64,000 nt of DNA, taken from the UHGV virus genome UHGV-0275551; one strand, written 5' to 3'. The DNA comes from a virus. Numbering within the stretch: position 1 is the stretch's first letter; each line of letters begins with the position of its first letter. Both the position numbers and the translations under genes were made by a program. This document shows positions 9,456-63,679 of the stretch, in pieces. The notes below the pieces were generated by a model, which was not told the DNA's origin, did not search any database, and was given only the letters and a program-made list of their open reading frames with translations.

Positions 9456-10104
9456 ATAAAATTTTATCGGTTGTCCCAACCTCTGGGTCACCATCATATG
9501 TGAATAAAATATCTATCCTTCTTAACAACCTCCTTAGTCTTACTCTCTATATAGTTATATAGTACTATATAGTATCTTAGTAACTATCTAGTGGTCTTAA
9601 TAGCCCCCCTGTATAAGCCTTCTAACTAGCCCTTTAATAAGCCCTCTAAACACTCTTCTAACAAGCCTTCTTAACAACCTATACAATCACCTTAACCATC
9701 TCTCTATACCCTCTTAGAAGCTCCTATACACCTCTTAATCTCTATGTCAGCTATGATACCCTCTATAGATGTTCACTAGGTACTACTAAGCCTCTATATA
9801 GACTGTTTTAACAAACTTAACAGGAATATCTTCACAGACCTTATCTCACAAGGTCTAACACGGTACTAACAAGGTATCTTATAAGCCTGTTTCTACCTGT
9901 ATTTTTAAAAGACTGTATAGGTAATTATTCAGAATTTTAAAATTTTTATAAAATAAGACTATCAAGTCATTTTTTAGGGTCTTTGAAGGAACTCAAAAAT
10001 ATCTGTAGAAGATGTATATCTGCTTGGTAGCCCTTAACAACTCCCTTACAAGTACTTTGCAAAATTTTAAAATATCCTTAACAATCTCTTAACAGTTCTC
10101 ACAA

Positions 10105-10176
10105 GCTCTTAACAACTCTTCAAAGCTCTTAACAACTCTTCAAAGCTCTTAACAACTCTTCAAAGCTCTTAACAGA
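10105..10176. repeat. perfect 20-bp tandem repeat (GCTCTTAACAACTCTTCAAA) x3 plus a partial fourth copy
   Basis: Read directly at 10105-10124, 10125-10144, 10145-10164. Confidence 0.9.
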
Positions 10177-11058
10177 TTCTTAACAGAACTAACAAGGATG
10201 TAACAGTTTCTTAACAGTTGATACATAGGCTTTACAGAATCTTAACAGATGACTAACAAGAGCTAACAAGTTAATTTTTAAGAGTTATTTTGTAGGGATA
10301 ATTAACAAGTTCCTAACAAGTGTTTAATCTTTTTAACAAGCTATTAACATGGTCACTATCTCTTTTCTTATCGTTCCCTTTCCCTCTTAGTGATTCTCTA
10401 AATAGCCCTCTTAAAAGCTCTCTATAGCTCCTTGTAAGCTCTTTTAAGTCTCTTCCTAGTAATTACACCCCAACTATACAGACACCTCTTTATAGGGCTT
10501 TACAGAGGCTTTAAAGGCTATGCTAAAGACTCTTACAAGGCTTTTACGTGGTCTTAACAGAGATTTAACAAGGGGCTAACAAGTCTCTAACAAGTGCCTT
10601 AAAAGCATAACTATGTAGGGATTGTTAAGAAATTGTTAAGAAAATGTTAAGGGGGCTAGCATTTACGTAACTTTATAGCCTCTTTTACGTAACTTTTGAG
10701 TAACTTTATAGCCCCTATAACATACTTTAAAGGAACTACCAAGCCCTTTTTAGTAGTTCACAAGAATACTAACGAGATGATAAAGCTTACACCCTTATAA
10801 GATTCTTCTAAGGCTCTGGGAAGCTCTATAAAGGGCTTTTTAGAGTGGGTTAATATGATTGCTTAAGTTAGGTTGATAAGGCTGTTATAGAGCGTTATAG
10901 AGCGTTTAAGGGGTTGCCCTTCCCTTTCGGGTTATGGGCTTATATTTAAGTTGATTTGATAAAAGGTTATAGAGTAGACTATAGAGTTATTGCTTTTAAG
11001 GTCTGATAAGATTCTGGAAAGGGAAGGGAAAGGGTTGTATAAGGATTTGATAGACGTA

Positions 11059-53646: not shown

Positions 53647-53952
53647 CATCACTTAAGAGTCTTCTAAGAGGGTTTTTAAGTGATGTCCGGTAGGGTAAGG
53701 TCGGGTTAAGTATTGTTCGGTACGGTAGGGTAAAGTACGGTACGGTAAGGTAAAGCAGGGTATGGGTAGTTAGTCTCAGCTACATTAAAATGAGACTTAC
53801 ATCACTTAAGAGTCTTTAAATTACACTCGATAAAGTATCTCATAGGGTTTTTAAGTGATGTTTGGCAAGGCAAGGTGCGGCCCGGTCGGGTAAGGTGCGG
53901 TGATGTATGGTAAAGTATGGGTGGATGGTAGTAGCCACGTTAAAAATCTACC
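53647..53952 (+). other. composite structured G/T-rich repeat element, copy 1 (two sub-units)
   Basis: 10-bp inverted repeats CATCACTTAA/TTAAGTGATG, GGT-rich tracts, terminal hairpins AGTCTCA...TGAGACT and GGTAG...CTACC. Confidence 0.7.
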
Positions 53953-58935: not shown

Positions 58936-58975
58936 AAAAGGCTCCCGTAAAAAGGAGCCTTAAATTTTATTTTTC
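58936..58975. terminator. bidirectional intrinsic terminator between convergent units
   Basis: GGCTCC-cgtaaaaa-GGAGCC flanked by A-run upstream and T-run downstream. Confidence 0.65.
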
Positions 58976-59338
58976 AGTATTCTTTGTGTTCTTTTCAGTA
59001 ATAGCTTGCAAGGCTGATACTGATTGAGCCAGATTGTTCACACTGTCAGAGAATTTATCAAGAGTCTTAGTAAGTTTTGCATTCTCACCCTTAACATTCT
59101 CTAACTGAACTTTCTGGTTCTCCATCCCTAGCTGAACCAGTCTCATGTCAGACTGTAAATCACGAATAGCTGAGTAATTAGATTTGCTATAATTATCTAG
59201 CTGCTGTAACTTTGTTGTGACAGACACTTCTTGCTTACCATCCGAGACTTGCATGGTGGTATACATCCCAATAACACTAAAAATACCAACTACAATTGCA
59301 CCAATATTATTTTTAAAAGCTTCCTCTAGCCACTTCAT
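58967..59338 (-). CDS. membrane-anchored coiled-coil protein
   Basis: 123 aa, N-terminal TM then heptad-like region; SD GGGGGAG. Confidence 0.5.
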   Translation of the reverse strand: MKWLEEAFKNNIGAIVVGIFSVIGMYTTMQVSDGKQEVSVTTKLQQLDNYSKSNYSAIRDLQSDMRLVQLGMENQKVQLENVKGENAKLTKTLDKFSDSVNNLAQSVSALQAITEKNTKNTEK

Positions 59339-59532
59339 TTATTCTCCCCCTTAAAAGCTTTTTCTAAGTTATCTACGAACTCATCATCAATAGGTGTGTC
59401 TGTTTTACTCGCAAGATATCTTGCAAGCTTAAAGAACACTTTCTCAATCATGTATTCACTTAGAAGGGATAAAATGAGTTTCCAGAAGAAGCTACCTAGA
59501 TTTTTTAGAAGAATTGCTAGGATTGTAGGCAT
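59335..59532 (-). CDS. small membrane protein
   Basis: 65 aa, hydrophobic N-terminal half. Confidence 0.45.
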   Translation of the reverse strand: MPTILAILLKNLGSFFWKLILSLLSEYMIEKVFFKLARYLASKTDTPIDDEFVDNLEKAFKGENK

Positions 59533-59611: not shown

Positions 59612-62152
59612 TTAAGCAGTTCTTACCCAAGCCATTAACTTGTAGAACTGGTTAGTAACACTAAATGCTGAACCAGAACCAGTACCACCTGTGTTACCAC
59701 TAACTGTGTGACTGTGAGCACCAATATCAACAGTGTGGCTGTGGTCACCAGTTGTGTTAGTTACACCAGACCAATTTCTTGATGCGTTGAAGTTGACAGG
59801 GATACCATTAGTAAAGTTATCACCAGTATACCCTTTAGAACCTACACTACTGCCGAGGTGGAATGCACCACTTGCTGTGTAGAAGCTGCTAGAGTCACTT
59901 CTAAAGTAACCAAACGAACCAGTAATCTCCATAGTACCTCTGTCATGGTTATGGTTACCAGTTGTGCTAGAAGTCTTAGTACCATAATCAAATGATGAAG
60001 TGGTAGCAGAGAAACTATGCGTGTGTGAAGGTAAGTTACCAACAGATAACGTTACAGAGTCTGAACCACCAGTTGTAGCAACATCTGAGCCATTTGCTGC
60101 TGCAATTCTAATAGTTCTGCCAACACCATTATTCAGGTACGTCCAAGTTAGACCAGGAAGTGCTGTATTAGGGTTAACATTACTGTTAAACCATGTCACA
60201 ATACCCACTGGGTAGATTTTATTCAGGTCTGTAGAGTCACTAATTGCTTCTGCAATTTTCTGGTCAGTTTCTGCTTTAGTGTATGCACCAATATCTGAAG
60301 GGGTTGGTTTTTGCAAACTTGTGTAGTATTTTGCAATTGTACCCTTCACAATACCTTGTGGAGCATCATCAAATGTTTGCGGGACTTCAAACAACTGTAC
60401 ACTTGCATTACTAGAAGATTGAACCCTAGATACCGTAGAATTTTGGTAGCCACCAACCTTACAGTAAATATCATAAGTGTCACCAGAAGTGTTAATGTAA
60501 CCAATATCAGTGATGAGAGCATTATCTGCTGTTCTCCAAGCTACAGCATTTAAATCCTTTGGATTATTATTTGATGTTCGTAAAACAATTTCACACTTAC
60601 CTGCTTGGTATGGGTTATTCGCATTAAAACCCGCACCCCCAAAAACCTCAATAACTGCCGTAGATGTTGATTGTGGCATTACAACAGTCGCAATTTTAGC
60701 CCACTTTTCATCGTTTCCTAAATTAAAGCTAGTACTTCTGATTCTCAGGTATCTACTATCACTAGCACTTTGAGTAAAATATCTAGCATCTAAGTTAGAG
60801 AAATCCGAAGGTTGAACTTGACCAGTGATTGCTAAAGTTGCATTCATTTCAAATACTGAACCAATGTTAAGCCCTTTACCTGTCTTGTAGTTATACAGGT
60901 TTAAGATATCACTGGCATCACCATTACCGATATACCACTTGCTGGTTCCATCAACAGCCTTCCCTCTAATAAATAATGACGATGCAGTTTTTGCTTTTAA
61001 CGCAAGAGCTTCACCATCAGAGTTGATAACCTGTTGTGCAGAGAATGTGTTAGCAGCATTGGTTCTTGCAATTGTACTTAATGTGGCTGCCGGAATATAT
61101 CTAGAATCAATATTAGTCCAATCCGAAGGTTGAACCTGACCAGTGATTCTGAAGTTCTGGTTGACTGAGATATAGCCATTATCAAGCCTGATATTTGAAC
61201 CGTGTACATAGTTGTGTAGCAGCACAGAGGCTGTGTTATCCCCGTTCCCTACATACCACCTGTTAGTGTTCTGAGAGTCAACACCCTGAATGAATAGTGA
61301 GCTAGCTGTTGCATTTTTCAACCTTAAAGCAGCACTGTCACTAATGATGGTTAGATTTCTACTAAACGTGTTAGTGCCCGTGAAATTATTATTAGCAGCT
61401 AACTGTGCAAATCTCTGATTAGCAACTGTCTGAGTAAAATATCTAGCATCTAAGTTAGAGAAATCTGAAGGTTGAACTTGACCAGTAATTGCTAAAGACT
61501 TATTAACAGAGACATTACTTGCAACAGTCAAGGCTGAGTTGTATTTGTTATTGTACAGCTTTACTTCGTCAGAGTCATTACTACCAATACCAACCCACCA
61601 TCTAGCCGAACCATCTAGGTTTACACCTTCGATATATTGTGCATTATTTGCATTTTGGTTTCTAAGGCGAAGTAAGTTAGCATCACCTTGAATATTTTGA
61701 GTTCCAGAGAATGTGTTTGTGATAGCAAGTCTTGCGTATCTTGCATCATTCTCTTCATTAGTTCTCATACCAAGCTCATTAGGACTTGGCTTATTCAGAG
61801 TATGATAAACAGTTGCTGACCTTGAAGCATCTGCAATAGTTAGTTTAAGACCATTTGCGTTAATTTTAAAAGTCTTTAAAATATCCCCAATAGTAATCTC
61901 AGAAGAGCCTGTAGGGTCAAATACAGCCTTACCACCATAAAGTAACTTGACAATACCTAAATCCCCCGTCATAGTGCTCCCAGCAATCTGAACAAACCTT
62001 TCTAGTTTGAAGGAAGCTAAGAAGTCTTGATAGGTCATTCTGCGGTCTTCATCACCCAACATTTCAGGTCTTTTCTTAACTCTGATGTGCAATAGGTCTT
62101 CTGAACGAATTGTGTCGATTGAGTTTAATTGACTCAATTTGTAATCTGCCAT
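59612..62152 (-). CDS. tail fibre protein with three tandem ~115-aa modules and His-rich (HxH) distal domain
   Basis: Repeated ITGQVQPSD(F/W)(S/T)N(L/I)D(A/S)RY; C-terminal HTHSF, GNHNH, GDHSHTVDIGAHSHTV; ATG 62152 with SD AAGAGG. Confidence 0.8.
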   Translation of the reverse strand: MADYKLSQLNSIDTIRSEDLLHIRVKKRPEMLGDEDRRMTYQDFLASFKLERFVQIAGSTMTGDLGIVKLLYGGKAVFDPTGSSEITIGDILKTFKINANGLKLTIADASRSATVYHTLNKPSPNELGMRTNEENDARYARLAITNTFSGTQNIQGDANLLRLRNQNANNAQYIEGVNLDGSARWWVGIGSNDSDEVKLYNNKYNSALTVASNVSVNKSLAITGQVQPSDFSNLDARYFTQTVANQRFAQLAANNNFTGTNTFSRNLTIISDSAALRLKNATASSLFIQGVDSQNTNRWYVGNGDNTASVLLHNYVHGSNIRLDNGYISVNQNFRITGQVQPSDWTNIDSRYIPAATLSTIARTNAANTFSAQQVINSDGEALALKAKTASSLFIRGKAVDGTSKWYIGNGDASDILNLYNYKTGKGLNIGSVFEMNATLAITGQVQPSDFSNLDARYFTQSASDSRYLRIRSTSFNLGNDEKWAKIATVVMPQSTSTAVIEVFGGAGFNANNPYQAGKCEIVLRTSNNNPKDLNAVAWRTADNALITDIGYINTSGDTYDIYCKVGGYQNSTVSRVQSSSNASVQLFEVPQTFDDAPQGIVKGTIAKYYTSLQKPTPSDIGAYTKAETDQKIAEAISDSTDLNKIYPVGIVTWFNSNVNPNTALPGLTWTYLNNGVGRTIRIAAANGSDVATTGGSDSVTLSVGNLPSHTHSFSATTSSFDYGTKTSSTTGNHNHDRGTMEITGSFGYFRSDSSSFYTASGAFHLGSSVGSKGYTGDNFTNGIPVNFNASRNWSGVTNTTGDHSHTVDIGAHSHTVSGNTGGTGSGSAFSVTNQFYKLMAWVRTA
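60771..60837. repeat. 67-bp intragenic direct repeat in the tail-fibre gene
   Basis: Identical to 61431-61497 except 2 mismatches. Confidence 0.85.
61431..61497. repeat. 67-bp intragenic direct repeat in the tail-fibre gene (second copy)
   Basis: Pairs with 60771-60837. Confidence 0.85.
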
Positions 62153-62161
62153 TATAAATTT

Positions 62162-62190
62162 TCCTCTTAAAAGGGGCTTTATAGCCCCTG
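62162..62190 (-). other. intergenic hairpin AGGGGCT-ataa-AGCCCCT between the two tail-fibre genes
   Basis: Perfect 7-bp stem; only a short U-run follows on the minus strand. Confidence 0.5.
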
Positions 62191-62198
62191 TAAAGAAA

Positions 62199-63374
62199 TT
62201 AAGCTGTTCTCTGCCATACATATACTACAAAAGATGGCTGCTCAACACTGAAAGCTTGACCACCACCAACAGAACCAGTTGTCCCTGAGTGTGTATGCTC
62301 AGAGCTAGAAACAGTAACAGTGCCTGTATGACTGTGCGAACCAATATTAACAGTGTGGCTGTGAGCACCAATTGCGACAGTATGGCTATGAGCACCAGAT
62401 GATGCAGTTGTACCTGAGAAGTTATGGGTGTGAGCACCAGCTAAATCAGTATACATAGCATTACCAACACCAGCATCAGCAGATGCAGTAATAGCATTTG
62501 TGCCACCCCTATCATTACCCCTCATAGGAACTCTATGGTTGTGGTTACCATCATTACTTGTTGTGCCGCTAAACGTGTGAGTGTGAGCATCAGCACTATT
62601 AGTCGTTTTTGTACCGTAATCAAAAGTTGATGTACTTTTTGAACCATAATCAAAACTAGAGATAGATACACTTGCAGAGTGTGTATGACCACCACCTGTT
62701 AGATAGATAGAGTGAGTATGTGCTGGTAAGTTATTATTTGTTAATGCTACAGTCTGAGAACCAAACGTTGAACCAACAGGTCTAGAATCTGTATCATAAC
62801 CAACTAGTGCTCTACCTTTAGAAACTAACTCCCAAGTACCTCCACAAAGCAAGTAAGTGGATGGGTTAGCAGAGTTAACAGATAAATGAATAGTCCCTAC
62901 TGGATATGACGCTTGGATAGCTTTGTATAAATTATTAACTGCTTTCGCGGTAGCATATTTATCAGCATCTTCATTGTACAGATTGGATGTTGTCCAGTTC
63001 TGGACATTACTTAAACCGACCTGTGCTTTCGTTGTGTTATGTGGGTTACTTTTGTCGTCAATATGTTGCTGAATTAAGTTATTCACTTCCTCTGACGACA
63101 TAATTTGTAGATTTGCTCTTGCCTCAGCAACACTTACAACATCTGACAAGTTATTAGCTGCAACTAATTGAAGAGAGTTAATAACATTATCAAGACCTAC
63201 TTGCGATTTAGTTACACCATGAGGGTTATTCCTCAAAGATGCGTGAGGTGCTAACAACTGTTCAAGCGTACATCTTTTATCCTCAACACCTTGCTTAAGA
63301 TGGAAGATATCACTCAAATCAATTGGTAAGGCCGCTTGTGGCAAGGCACTAATTTGAATTTCACCTACTGCCAT
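62199..63374 (-). CDS. tail fibre protein with NPH.(V/T)TK.QVGL repeats and His-rich (HxH) C-terminal domain
   Basis: Two NPHGVTKSQVGLDNV-type repeats; C-terminus AHTHS, GNHNH, GAHSHTVAIGAHSHTV, ending VWQRTA, paralogous to the larger fibre. Confidence 0.8.
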   Translation of the reverse strand: MAVGEIQISALPQAALPIDLSDIFHLKQGVEDKRCTLEQLLAPHASLRNNPHGVTKSQVGLDNVINSLQLVAANNLSDVVSVAEARANLQIMSSEEVNNLIQQHIDDKSNPHNTTKAQVGLSNVQNWTTSNLYNEDADKYATAKAVNNLYKAIQASYPVGTIHLSVNSANPSTYLLCGGTWELVSKGRALVGYDTDSRPVGSTFGSQTVALTNNNLPAHTHSIYLTGGGHTHSASVSISSFDYGSKSTSTFDYGTKTTNSADAHTHTFSGTTSNDGNHNHRVPMRGNDRGGTNAITASADAGVGNAMYTDLAGAHTHNFSGTTASSGAHSHTVAIGAHSHTVNIGSHSHTGTVTVSSSEHTHSGTTGSVGGGQAFSVEQPSFVVYVWQRTA

Positions 63375-63376
63375 TA

Positions 63377-63679
63377 TTAAGCTCCTACATATTCATATGT
63401 GTAAAGGTTTCTTGTGCTTGTTGATGCAGTCCCTGTCTCAGACTTAATGAGGTTCCAGCCATTAGCCACTAAATCTGGTTGCTCAGTTGCATATGAACGA
63501 ACTTCACCAACAGTGCCATTTACTTTATTCAGCAGGTAGTTGATAATATAGTTGAACCACTGTCTACCCATAGGCTCACCCTTTAAAAGACCTGTCTCTT
63601 GAACTTCCGGTGGTGGTAAAACTTTTAACTGATTACCATCAGTATCCACTTCATTTGTAGACCAATTTAGAACTGCCAT
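63377..63679 (-). CDS. hypothetical tail-fibre-associated protein
   Basis: 100-aa ORF immediately upstream of the fibre genes. Confidence 0.5.

Follow-up and report, generated by a model that had tools for sequence, protein, structure and literature searches.

Tail-fibre genes of a Felix O1-like Escherichia coli phage: evidence for the exchange of old shaft modules rather than their recent duplication

When two modules of a tail fibre share a stretch of nearly identical DNA, has the fibre recently been enlarged by duplication or does the stretch have another history? The question is raised by a pair of genes in the virus genome UHGV-0275551, of which a stretch of 64,000 nucleotides (nt), here called the window, was analysed. 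Two adjacent open reading frames (ORFs) lie on its minus strand at 62199-63374 (391 amino acids, aa) and 59612-62221 (869 aa). An earlier examination of the letters, made without database searches (the sequence-only reading), had taken them for tail fibres and had explained the repeats in the larger one by recent duplication. The comparisons reported here favor a different history, to which a probability of about 0.88 can be given as a whole: the locus belongs to a Felix O1-like E. coli phage and encodes its short and long tail fibres, which would be the two fibres of host adsorption; the three modules of the long fibre are ancient paralogues, and the 67-nt identity within them is not the trace of a recent duplication; and the module bodies, the shaft domain that follows them and the head of the tip appear to be exchanged between phages as discrete cassettes.

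The identification of both genes as tail fibres, in which the sequence-only reading was right, is based on homology and synteny. The window DNA is 94-96% identical at the nucleotide level to Felixounavirus genomes from E. coli O157:H7 (vB_EcoM_D4, the O157 typing phages 1, 12 and 15, and MET-P1-301); for the Felix O1-like phages of Salmonella that were listed, the figure is 81-86%. These values place it in Felixounavirus, nearest to the E. coli O157 phages and related to wV8 and the O157 typing phages. The gene order is that of typing phage 1, D4 and Bas63: a baseplate wedge gene, a 100-aa ORF (the platform), a fibre of ~390 aa, a fibre of ~780-850 aa, two small ORFs and the convergent thyA/dfrA genes. 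By synteny and profile matches, the short tail fibre (STF; 391 aa, 62199-63374, minus strand) is the orthologue of Bas63 gp26 and Sf14 gp52; it matches PF21939 (Gp10_C, E = 1.7e-18, aa 154-276) and the tail-fibre family phrog_2097 (E = 5e-137), and its relatives are 75-96% identical to it. The long tail fibre (LTF; 846 aa, 59612-62152, minus strand) is the orthologue of Bas63 gp27 and Sf14 gp53 and matches the tail-fibre family phrog_4277 with 1333 bits; its residues 1-469 are 63% identical to Bas63 gp27. The length of 846 aa is adopted because the ATG at 62152 follows an AAGAGGA motif (62162-62168) and is where the annotations of typing phage 1 and Bas63 place the start. The longest ORF, which starts 69 nt further upstream at 62221 and runs into the short-fibre gene, probably has the wrong start, and the protein would begin at M24 of the 869-aa ORF. 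At least one GenBank record, that of vB_EcoM_D4, annotates the over-long version. The nearest relatives of the two halves of the LTF sit in different proteins (99% identity for the N-terminal half and 83% for the C-terminal half), and the locus is a new combination of alleles of a well-described fibre pair.

The presence of three tandem modules is confirmed. Three consecutive stretches of the LTF match PF20744 (the "gp37 trimerization region"; E = 1.7e-69, 230.3 bits in total against a cut-off of 21.7). They correspond to the bodies of module 1 (aa 141-218, 61499-61732; the best-scoring part of this first match is aa 182-270), module 2 (aa 255-332, 61157-61390) and module 3 (aa 362-438, 60839-61069), all on the minus strand like the rest of the gene and occupying what will be called slots 1, 2 and 3. 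The 67-nt repeat described for them is also exact: the copies at 60771-60837 and 61431-61497 match in 65 of 67 positions (97%), a middle copy at 61089-61155 is 73% identical, and the start-to-start spacings of 342 and 318 nt correspond to 114 and 106 aa. These two features, three tandem units and a repeat with only 2 mismatches, are what speaks for a recent tandem duplication, a reading that predicts a copy number differing from isolate to isolate and makes the repeats a hotspot of expansion and contraction. The rest of the modules tells otherwise. Once codon-aligned, whole modules share 41-47% of their amino acids and 50-57% of their nucleotides, a divergence at the level of saturation, near-identity being confined to the final ~23 codons of modules 1 and 3. 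Moreover, none of the 134 distinct N-terminal halves that were compared departs from these three slots or from a body length of 77-80 aa, the length classes of the LTF are set apart by the fifth shaft domain and the tip alone, and the authors of the Bas63 structure likewise report a repeat number without variation (PMC12609058). A recent duplication is thus already largely refuted and, as an explanation of this locus, very improbable.

What the near-identical 67 nt represent is the linker between modules, for which the consensus ITGQVQPSDFSNLDARYFTQ can be written. Linker 1 (aa 219-241, 61430-61498, SLAITGQVQPSDFSNLDARYFTQ) holds the repeat copy at 61431-61497, linker 2 (aa 333-355, 61088-61156, NFRITGQVQPSDWTNIDSRYIPA) the middle copy, which is the one 73% identical to the reference copy, and linker 3 (aa 439-461, 60770-60838, TLAITGQVQPSDFSNLDARYFTQ) the copy at 60771-60837. 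In every relative the linker is a conserved island, with a mean amino acid identity of 78-87% against 28-48% for the module bodies. Its DNA is nearly unchanged as far as Bas63, and its three copies keep their places, near aa 222, 336 and 445, throughout 24 loci. In the phage of the window, the two outer linkers, 1 and 3, are of one allele. Selection on synonymous sites of the linker DNA was considered and rejected: the fraction of identical codons is 0.63-0.70 in linkers 1-3, 0.64-0.78 in the stretches after the linkers and 0.75-0.79 in the N-terminus, the collar and the returning part of the needle. Since synonymous conservation in the linkers equals that of the rest of the backbone, the backbone of the LTF is young and the module bodies, or cassettes, are old.

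Pairwise comparisons with relatives show where the old parts begin and end. Divergent tracts cover aa 144-221, 258-338, 365-443, 356-614 and 716-806, with ~22-52% nucleotide identity inside and 86-100% in the flanks. Against D4, module 2 alone differs (aa 258-338, 52% nt identity, flanks 86-95%) and module 3 is 97% identical; against typing phage 1, modules 2 and 3 both differ, the latter with 51% nt identity. HY02 differs in module 1 (48% nt identity, flanks 86-97%) and again from module 3 through the fifth domain, and its module 2 is 94% identical. L003 differs in modules 2 and 3, in parts of the fifth domain and in the head, where the tract (aa 716-806) is bounded by the conserved stretches HTH710 and HSH804. 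When the 134 N-terminal halves were sorted into types at a single-linkage identity cut-off of 75%, slots 1, 2 and 3 yielded 10, 16 and 14 allele types, which occur in 53 combinations; all four combinations of two allele pairs were found in 14, 43 and 15 cases for the three slot pairings. Three allele types are common to slots 1 and 3 (85-91% aa identity), each with the upstream linker of its own slot, and none is common to slot 2 and either of the others. This pattern fits the linkers, as linkers 1 and 3 have one sequence variant and linker 2 another.

The low identity of the module bodies, the least conserved parts of the protein with a mean of 28-48%, could also be expected if the shaft were under relaxed constraint and accumulated missense changes by drift without any exchange of cassettes. 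Of the three hypotheses in the Bas63 paper this one comes first; its authors found the variability of repeats 2-5 unexpected, proposed drift, host recognition or escape from defence, and do not mention recombination (PMC12609058). Nevertheless, the divergence is not graded: when database records are compared with the window's module 2 allele, their identities are bimodal, 18 of them reaching at least 90% and 198 staying under 60%. In addition, the boundaries are sharp and coincide with the linkers, the same allele is found in otherwise different backbones and alleles reassort, and the equal synonymous conservation of linkers and backbone points to old cassettes in a young backbone. Drift alone is therefore a quite improbable account of the variability. 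The exchange of discrete cassettes accommodates all these observations: the linkers, and the conserved HxH (histidine, any residue, histidine) stretches around the head, would act as homology arms at which co-infecting relatives swap module bodies, the fifth domain and the head as separate cassettes, presumably by homologous recombination, and slots 1 and 3 could hold the same cassette types. The recombination hotspot proposed by the sequence-only reading survives in this form, as exchange between phages at the linkers, and falls as a site of copy-number change.

A further event may have contributed to the likeness of the outer linkers, namely an intragenic gene conversion that copied linker 1 onto linker 3 in the lineage of the window. 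Such a tract would add to cassette exchange and does not exclude it. Over 69 codon-aligned nucleotides, the identity of linkers 1 and 3 is 0.94 in the window, and 23 relatives have values of 0.55-0.90. The module 3 body of D4 is that of the window (97% nt identity), and the linker 3 behind it reads WANIDARYFTQ where the window reads FSNLDARYFTQ. Besides, both linker 3 and linker 1 of the window use the rarer synonymous codons TAT-TTT, whereas linker 1 of D4, TP1, L002, HY02, L003 and Bas63 has TAC-TTT or TAC-TTC. Yet FSNLDARYFTQ is also present at linker 3 of TP1, L002, L003 and L021, an import from another phage explains nearly as much (it lies 2 nt apart from the conversion scenario), and the window is not a strong outlier, as the next value is 0.90 and the difference amounts to a handful of sites. 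The higher identity may reflect a short conversion tract, which we retain as a possible addition that stays below even odds.

If cassette exchange is taken one step further, the LTF shaft could be a three-slot combinatorial system in which 10-16 ancient alleles per slot (~50% nt identity), maintained in a pool common to Felixounavirus and Mooglevirus, are reshuffled by homologous recombination at the ~70-nt linkers. This generalization is speculative and is advanced with somewhat less confidence than the conversion tract. Should the polymorphism be selected, one candidate would be lateral contact between the shaft and variable glycans of the cell surface, and another the evasion of a host defence by which the fibre is sensed; either of them, if true, would answer the question left in the Bas63 paper of why beta-helix repeats 2-5 vary so much. 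Searches on His-box recombination and on fibre recombination in Felixounavirus found, within the literature that could be searched, no description of this cassette pattern or of its reshuffling.

The second question raised by the locus is the nature of the histidine-rich ends of the two fibres. The STF has 9 HxH motifs and the LTF 4, and GAHSHTV occurs twice in the STF (GAHSHTVAIGAHSHTVNIGSHSHTG) and once in the LTF (GDHSHTVDIGAHSHTVSG). The two tips are 32% identical over 234 aligned columns (E = 3e-16), an alignment that supports their paralogy, as had been proposed, and the HxH and repeat features of both fibres are not a chance pattern. Their relationship to the tip of T4 gp37 (2XGF) is found with the STF directly (E = 5e-26), all 7 of the T4 HxH motifs being aligned and 2 more present in the STF. 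For the LTF it is found with a profile of 62 homologues, which aligns with residues 19-242, that is, with the whole tip (E = 2.7e-44). The four LTF motifs, two on the outgoing path (710 and 734) and two on the returning one (804 and 813), include three that align to T4 motifs. The invariant or nearly invariant columns of both family alignments (A1 and A2) are largely the His and Gly of GxHxH; in the LTF alignment (A1) they include H710/712, H734/736, H804/806 and H813/815. The suggestion that these domains are of the metal-binding kind is supported by these matches.

By homology with Bas63 and Sf14, both fibres would be homotrimers with their N-termini fixed to the baseplate, the STF probably on the wedge protein and the LTF on a platform formed by the 100-aa protein encoded upstream. 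Each would end in a tip of the T4 gp37 type, in which a collar leads into a six-stranded needle, each chain going out, reversing at the head and returning. Across the three chains, the HxH motifs would form stacked octahedral metal sites, occupied by iron in T4, with up to 9 predicted sites in the STF and 4 in the LTF. A small head at the turn of the needle would touch the receptor, presumably lipopolysaccharide (LPS) as for the genus. The number of motifs varies among relatives: 128 near-full-length LTF relatives fall into two main classes with 4 (n = 64) or 6 (n = 60) HxH in the tip, and STF relatives mostly have 9, those of Bas63 length (382 aa) having 7. From these counts, needle length appears to change by whole HxH units.

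The structure models inform this picture unevenly. AlphaFold2 (AF2) was run on monomers with the family alignments and gave a moderate confidence (predicted local distance difference test, pLDDT) of 65 for the C-terminal half of the LTF and 71 for the STF. In the STF model the collar is confident, and long paired beta strands (222-241, 255-274, 315-334 and 347-365) enclose a head modelled with low confidence, which is how a single chain of an intertwined needle should look; the needle region of the LTF model is of low confidence. In Foldseek searches the STF model matched only the C-terminal collar of gp10 (2FKK) and pore toxins with long beta-hairpins. The structure prediction which the sequence-only reading had called for thus returned the paired strands around the STF head and not the metal sites themselves, which were not seen directly in these monomers. 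Of the two observations which that reading had named as jointly refuting it, one, an invariant module number, was found.

Several points count against the interpretation as a whole. Foldseek searches of the PDB with both monomer models did not recover 2XGF, and the match of the single LTF tip sequence to 2XGF is weak (E = 3e-6 to 6e-3). Monomer models suit intertwined trimers poorly, for which reason the sequence and profile matches were relied on; given the missed 2XGF and the moderate monomer confidence, the putative His-metal sites rest on sequence homology to T4 and on no modelled site. As for the cassettes, recombination is deduced from mosaic patterns, and the allele survey mixes 24 genomic loci with metagenome protein clusters, is biased towards relatives of the query and yields types that depend on the 75% single-linkage cut-off.

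Which part of the fibre could determine the host? That the locus is a host-range determinant, as the sequence-only reading had it, is plausible from the distribution of its alleles, for which the host of isolation serves as a crude proxy for host range. The variable head of the LTF covers 63 aa (738-800, positions 59753-59941). At 85% identity or more, its allele is found almost only in phages isolated on Shiga toxin-producing E. coli (STEC) of serogroups O157, O111 and O103, two records listing just "Escherichia coli"; in Shigella phages related to Sf14 it falls to 61-67% (61-62% in the Sf13 to Sf19 phages). The same allele (59732-60007) is 72-75% identical in two T4-like phages of 170 kb, vB_EcoM-ZQ3 and CJY920 (MW630116 and PQ349265), a match that indicates an exchange of the receptor-binding head between phage families.

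Two of the shaft alleles are distributed more widely. The module 2 allele occurs at 93-100% identity in Felix O1 (Salmonella) and in phages of E. coli O157, O103, O145, O121 and LF82, and the fifth-domain allele is common to phages of E. coli, Salmonella (Paratyphi) and Citrobacter. The module 3 allele is rarer and reaches at least 87% in only six database records, mostly STEC phages. One of the six is Shigella phage Silverhawkium (MK562505, 87% identity), grouped with the relatives of Sf14 in the Sf14 paper (PMC11821841), and since this phage carries it, the cassette pool appears to extend beyond Felixounavirus. The shaft modules could themselves be proposed as the main host-range determinants in place of the tip heads, given their high polymorphism with many maintained alleles and the occurrence of the window's module 3 allele mostly in STEC phages. 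Nevertheless, two of the three shaft cassettes tested (module 2 and the fifth domain) cross host genera, the former being common to Felix O1 and E. coli phages of several serogroups and the latter to phages of three genera. The head allele, for its part, tracks STEC hosts, and it is the head that contacts the receptor in T4. The isolation host is a crude proxy, but a leading role of the shaft is unlikely. The pattern suggests that the head of the tip, rather than the shaft, carries the STEC-associated specificity, and it agrees with the T4 model of a head that touches the receptor, LPS being the receptor of the genus. A PhageMaP preprint and a 2026 receptor-prediction preprint contained no fibre-specific data for this genus.

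The remaining parts of the two proteins complete the map. Residues 1-140 of the LTF (61733-62152) comprise a probable baseplate-binding domain, a first shaft repeat and linker 0 (KPSPNELGMRTNEENDARY), delimited by conservation (88-96% mean identity to 23 relatives) and by a linker-like motif at aa 122. The shaft would then consist of five units, each a domain plus a linker: the conserved repeat, the three PF20744 domains of ~80 aa and a larger beta-sandwich domain. The PF20744 domains resemble the pyramid domain of T7 gp17 and the rod of T4 gp34; module 2 in particular is homologous to the former, matching residues 368-442 of T7 gp17 in PDB 4A0T (E = 1.1e-6). A further PDB entry matched by the shaft domain is 7BOZ (E ~1e-6). 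The fifth shaft domain (aa 462-615, 60308-60769) is apparently exchangeable and was delimited with tblastn and AF2, which predicts a confident beta-sandwich over aa ~472-611 (pLDDT mostly 64-93). Its tblastn matches, to gp37 of T2, JSE and RB49 and to P1/P2-like fibres, relate it to segments of the T-even gp37, and a Pfam search assigned it to no family. The Foldseek matches of the LTF C-terminal model to tailspike-like proteins (6TGF, E = 4e-8) presumably arise through this confidently modelled domain. The collar of the LTF (aa 616-705, 60038-60307) is conserved, with 91-95% mean identity to relatives over aa 621-700, and its PF21939 match (aa 667-760) falls below the Pfam cut-off. Needle and head follow at aa 706-846 (59612-60037), as delimited by the HxH positions and the alignment to 2XGF.

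The STF is built more simply. Its residues 1-140 (62955-63374, minus strand) form a conserved N-terminal part and a helical shaft, with 71-95% mean identity to 24 relatives and helices modelled at 37-46, 67-105 and 143-156; by analogy with Bas63, the N-terminal part probably binds the baseplate. The collar (aa 141-215, 62730-62954) has the fold of the T4 gp10 C-terminal domain according to the Gp10_C match, a match to 2FKK (E = 2.6e-6) and the Foldseek comparison of its model with the same structure (probability 0.98, pLDDT 85-92). The needle, the head and the C-terminal return occupy aa 216-391 (62202-62729), on the evidence of the 9 HxH positions (H at 219, 230, 264 and 278 on the outgoing path and at 315, 329, 338, 347 and 360 on the return), the 2XGF alignment and the AF2 strands. 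Among relatives the variable region is the distal needle and head (aa 256-330), the head itself lying at about aa 282-312. The GAHSHTV-type HxH units of the needle are encoded by a tandem repeat of 27 nt (9 aa) at 62326-62397, found with Tandem Repeats Finder (2.7 copies, 77% matches), and the repeat families D2-D5 tie this array to the LTF needle at 59701-59770.

Some neighbouring elements deserve description. The 100-aa ORF (63377-63679, minus strand) is a homologue of Bas63 gp25, with the position and length of bas63_0025 and FDI04_gp025 and a full-length match to phrog_4141 (E = 1.5e-60); Bas63 gp25 is a T4 gp9-like platform that holds the long fibre (PMC12609058). A GC-rich hairpin, GGGGCT-NNNN-AGCCCC (62173-62188, minus strand), with a fold energy of -16.1 kcal/mol (z = -2.6), lies between the stop codon of the STF (62199-62201) and the ribosome-binding site of the LTF. 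Its stem is kept in all 16 distinct versions of the intergenic region with about ten different loops, one base pair being changed in two L003-type variants. The hairpin was considered as a terminator and rejected, a consensus scan making no call and the T-run missing in some relatives; it is probably not a simple terminator, and may set the ratio of STF to LTF expression or stabilise the upstream mRNA. A terminator scan points to a second hairpin at 58938-58961, strong and terminator-like, which has 8-9 pairs and a T-run on both strands, appears bidirectional and sits where the fibre operon meets the convergent thyA/dfrA genes.

Just downstream of the LTF are two small minus-strand ORFs conserved across the genus, at 59335-59532 (65 aa) and 58967-59338 (123 aa). 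Both have a hydrophobic N-terminal stretch, and the second a coiled-coil-like tail. Pfam gave no family for the 65-aa ORF and sub-threshold coiled-coil matches alone for the 123-aa ORF, and both families are listed in PHROGs as of unknown function. In the Sf14 paper, gp55, at the homologous position, is tabulated as "holin or lysozyme" and was found in virions (PMC11821841). The two ORFs could encode lysis or fibre-assembly factors. Elsewhere in the window, a tandem array at 10077-10195 (20-nt unit CTCTTAACAACTCTTCAAAG, 4.4 copies, 94% matches) lies near a switch of coding strand and GC skew and may be a regulatory repeat or one of the iteron type; another array, weaker than this one, is found at 53688-53762. 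Rfam and tRNA scans of the whole window returned no hits. The database searches also brought up Felixounavirus LTF sequences filed under Staphylococcus phage SA1 (UNVERIFIED_ORG), Staphylococcus hyicus, Pseudomonas aeruginosa and Campylobacter phage A132, records that look contaminated or mislabelled.

For annotation, the labels of short fibre, long fibre and long-fibre platform can be given with confidence, and the LTF start is to be corrected to 62152. For engineering and the prediction of host range, the cassette map offers natural, already-tested junctions for Felix O1-like fibres: each of the three linkers, the collar, and the HxH stretches that border the head. In evolutionary terms, the movement of old alleles between phages would replace recent duplication and gives a testable answer to the variability of the shaft repeats. 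What is added is no more than a map of the cassettes and their exchange between slots 1 and 3, and it would be modest and unsurprising to a specialist of tail fibres.

Indeed, the identity of the fibres, the type of their tips and the layout of the shaft domains are already published for the family. In the cryo-electron microscopy (cryo-EM) structure of Bas63 (Sci Adv 2025; PMC12609058), the STF is gp26 and the LTF gp27, both tips have the collar, needle and head of T4 gp37 with conserved HxH motifs, and the LTF has five beta-helix repeat domains separated by helical linkers. The cryo-EM structures of Bas63 and Sf14 show trimeric fibres attached at the baseplate wedge and platform and folded back along the sheath (PMC12609058, PMC11821841). 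Bas63 (JohannRWettstein) is of the same genus as the window phage and has the same gene order, two-fibre architecture, HxH tips and five-unit LTF shaft. It differs in an LTF of 784 aa against 846 aa, in the fifth domain, which in the window is larger, of another type and apparently related to the T-even gp37, in the LTF tip (6 HxH, against 4 HxH and a 63-aa head), in the STF (7 HxH against 9) and in all three module alleles. For Sf14, domains similar to the pyramid of T7 gp17 and a gp37-like distal tip have been described (Commun Biol 2025; PMC11821841). This Shigella phage has a similar pair (gp52 and gp53), a fibre of 391 aa and one of ~790 aa that is folded back along the sheath, and its relative Silverhawkium has the window's module 3 allele (87%); it belongs, however, to another genus (Mooglevirus) and has other tip alleles, the head of the window phage being 61-62% identical to those of the Sf13 to Sf19 phages.

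The more distant comparisons are with T4, T7 and the T-even phages. The tip of T4 gp37 (2XGF) has the same layout of collar, needle and head, with its 7 HxH aligned to the STF and the LTF profile matching at E = 2.7e-44. In T4, however, this tip stands on a long fibre of four proteins and has 7 HxH, whereas in the window the tips stand on two single-protein fibres and have 9 (STF) and 4 (LTF). T4 fibre assembly further depends on two chaperones, gp57A and gp38; beside the fibre genes of the window, no gp38-like gene was seen. The three modules, each of which matches PF20744, are comparable to the pyramid of T7 gp17 (4A0T) and the rod of T4 gp34, but in the window three such domains stand in tandem, with conserved linkers of ~35 aa and the behaviour of exchangeable cassettes. 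Finally, "His box" motifs reportedly serve as sites of recombination in the gp37 adhesins of T-even phages (Tetart, Desplats and Krisch, 1998). There, variable receptor-binding segments lie between conserved GxHxH stretches, in which the mosaic junctions fall, as the head of the window does between HTH710 and HSH804. Sharp junctions at conserved motifs and independent assortment, the marks of a mosaic fibre, are both found when the LTF is compared with its relatives. The difference from the T-even model is that the same logic would extend here into the shaft, where the PF20744 slots are bounded by linkers without His motifs and slots 1 and 3 share alleles.

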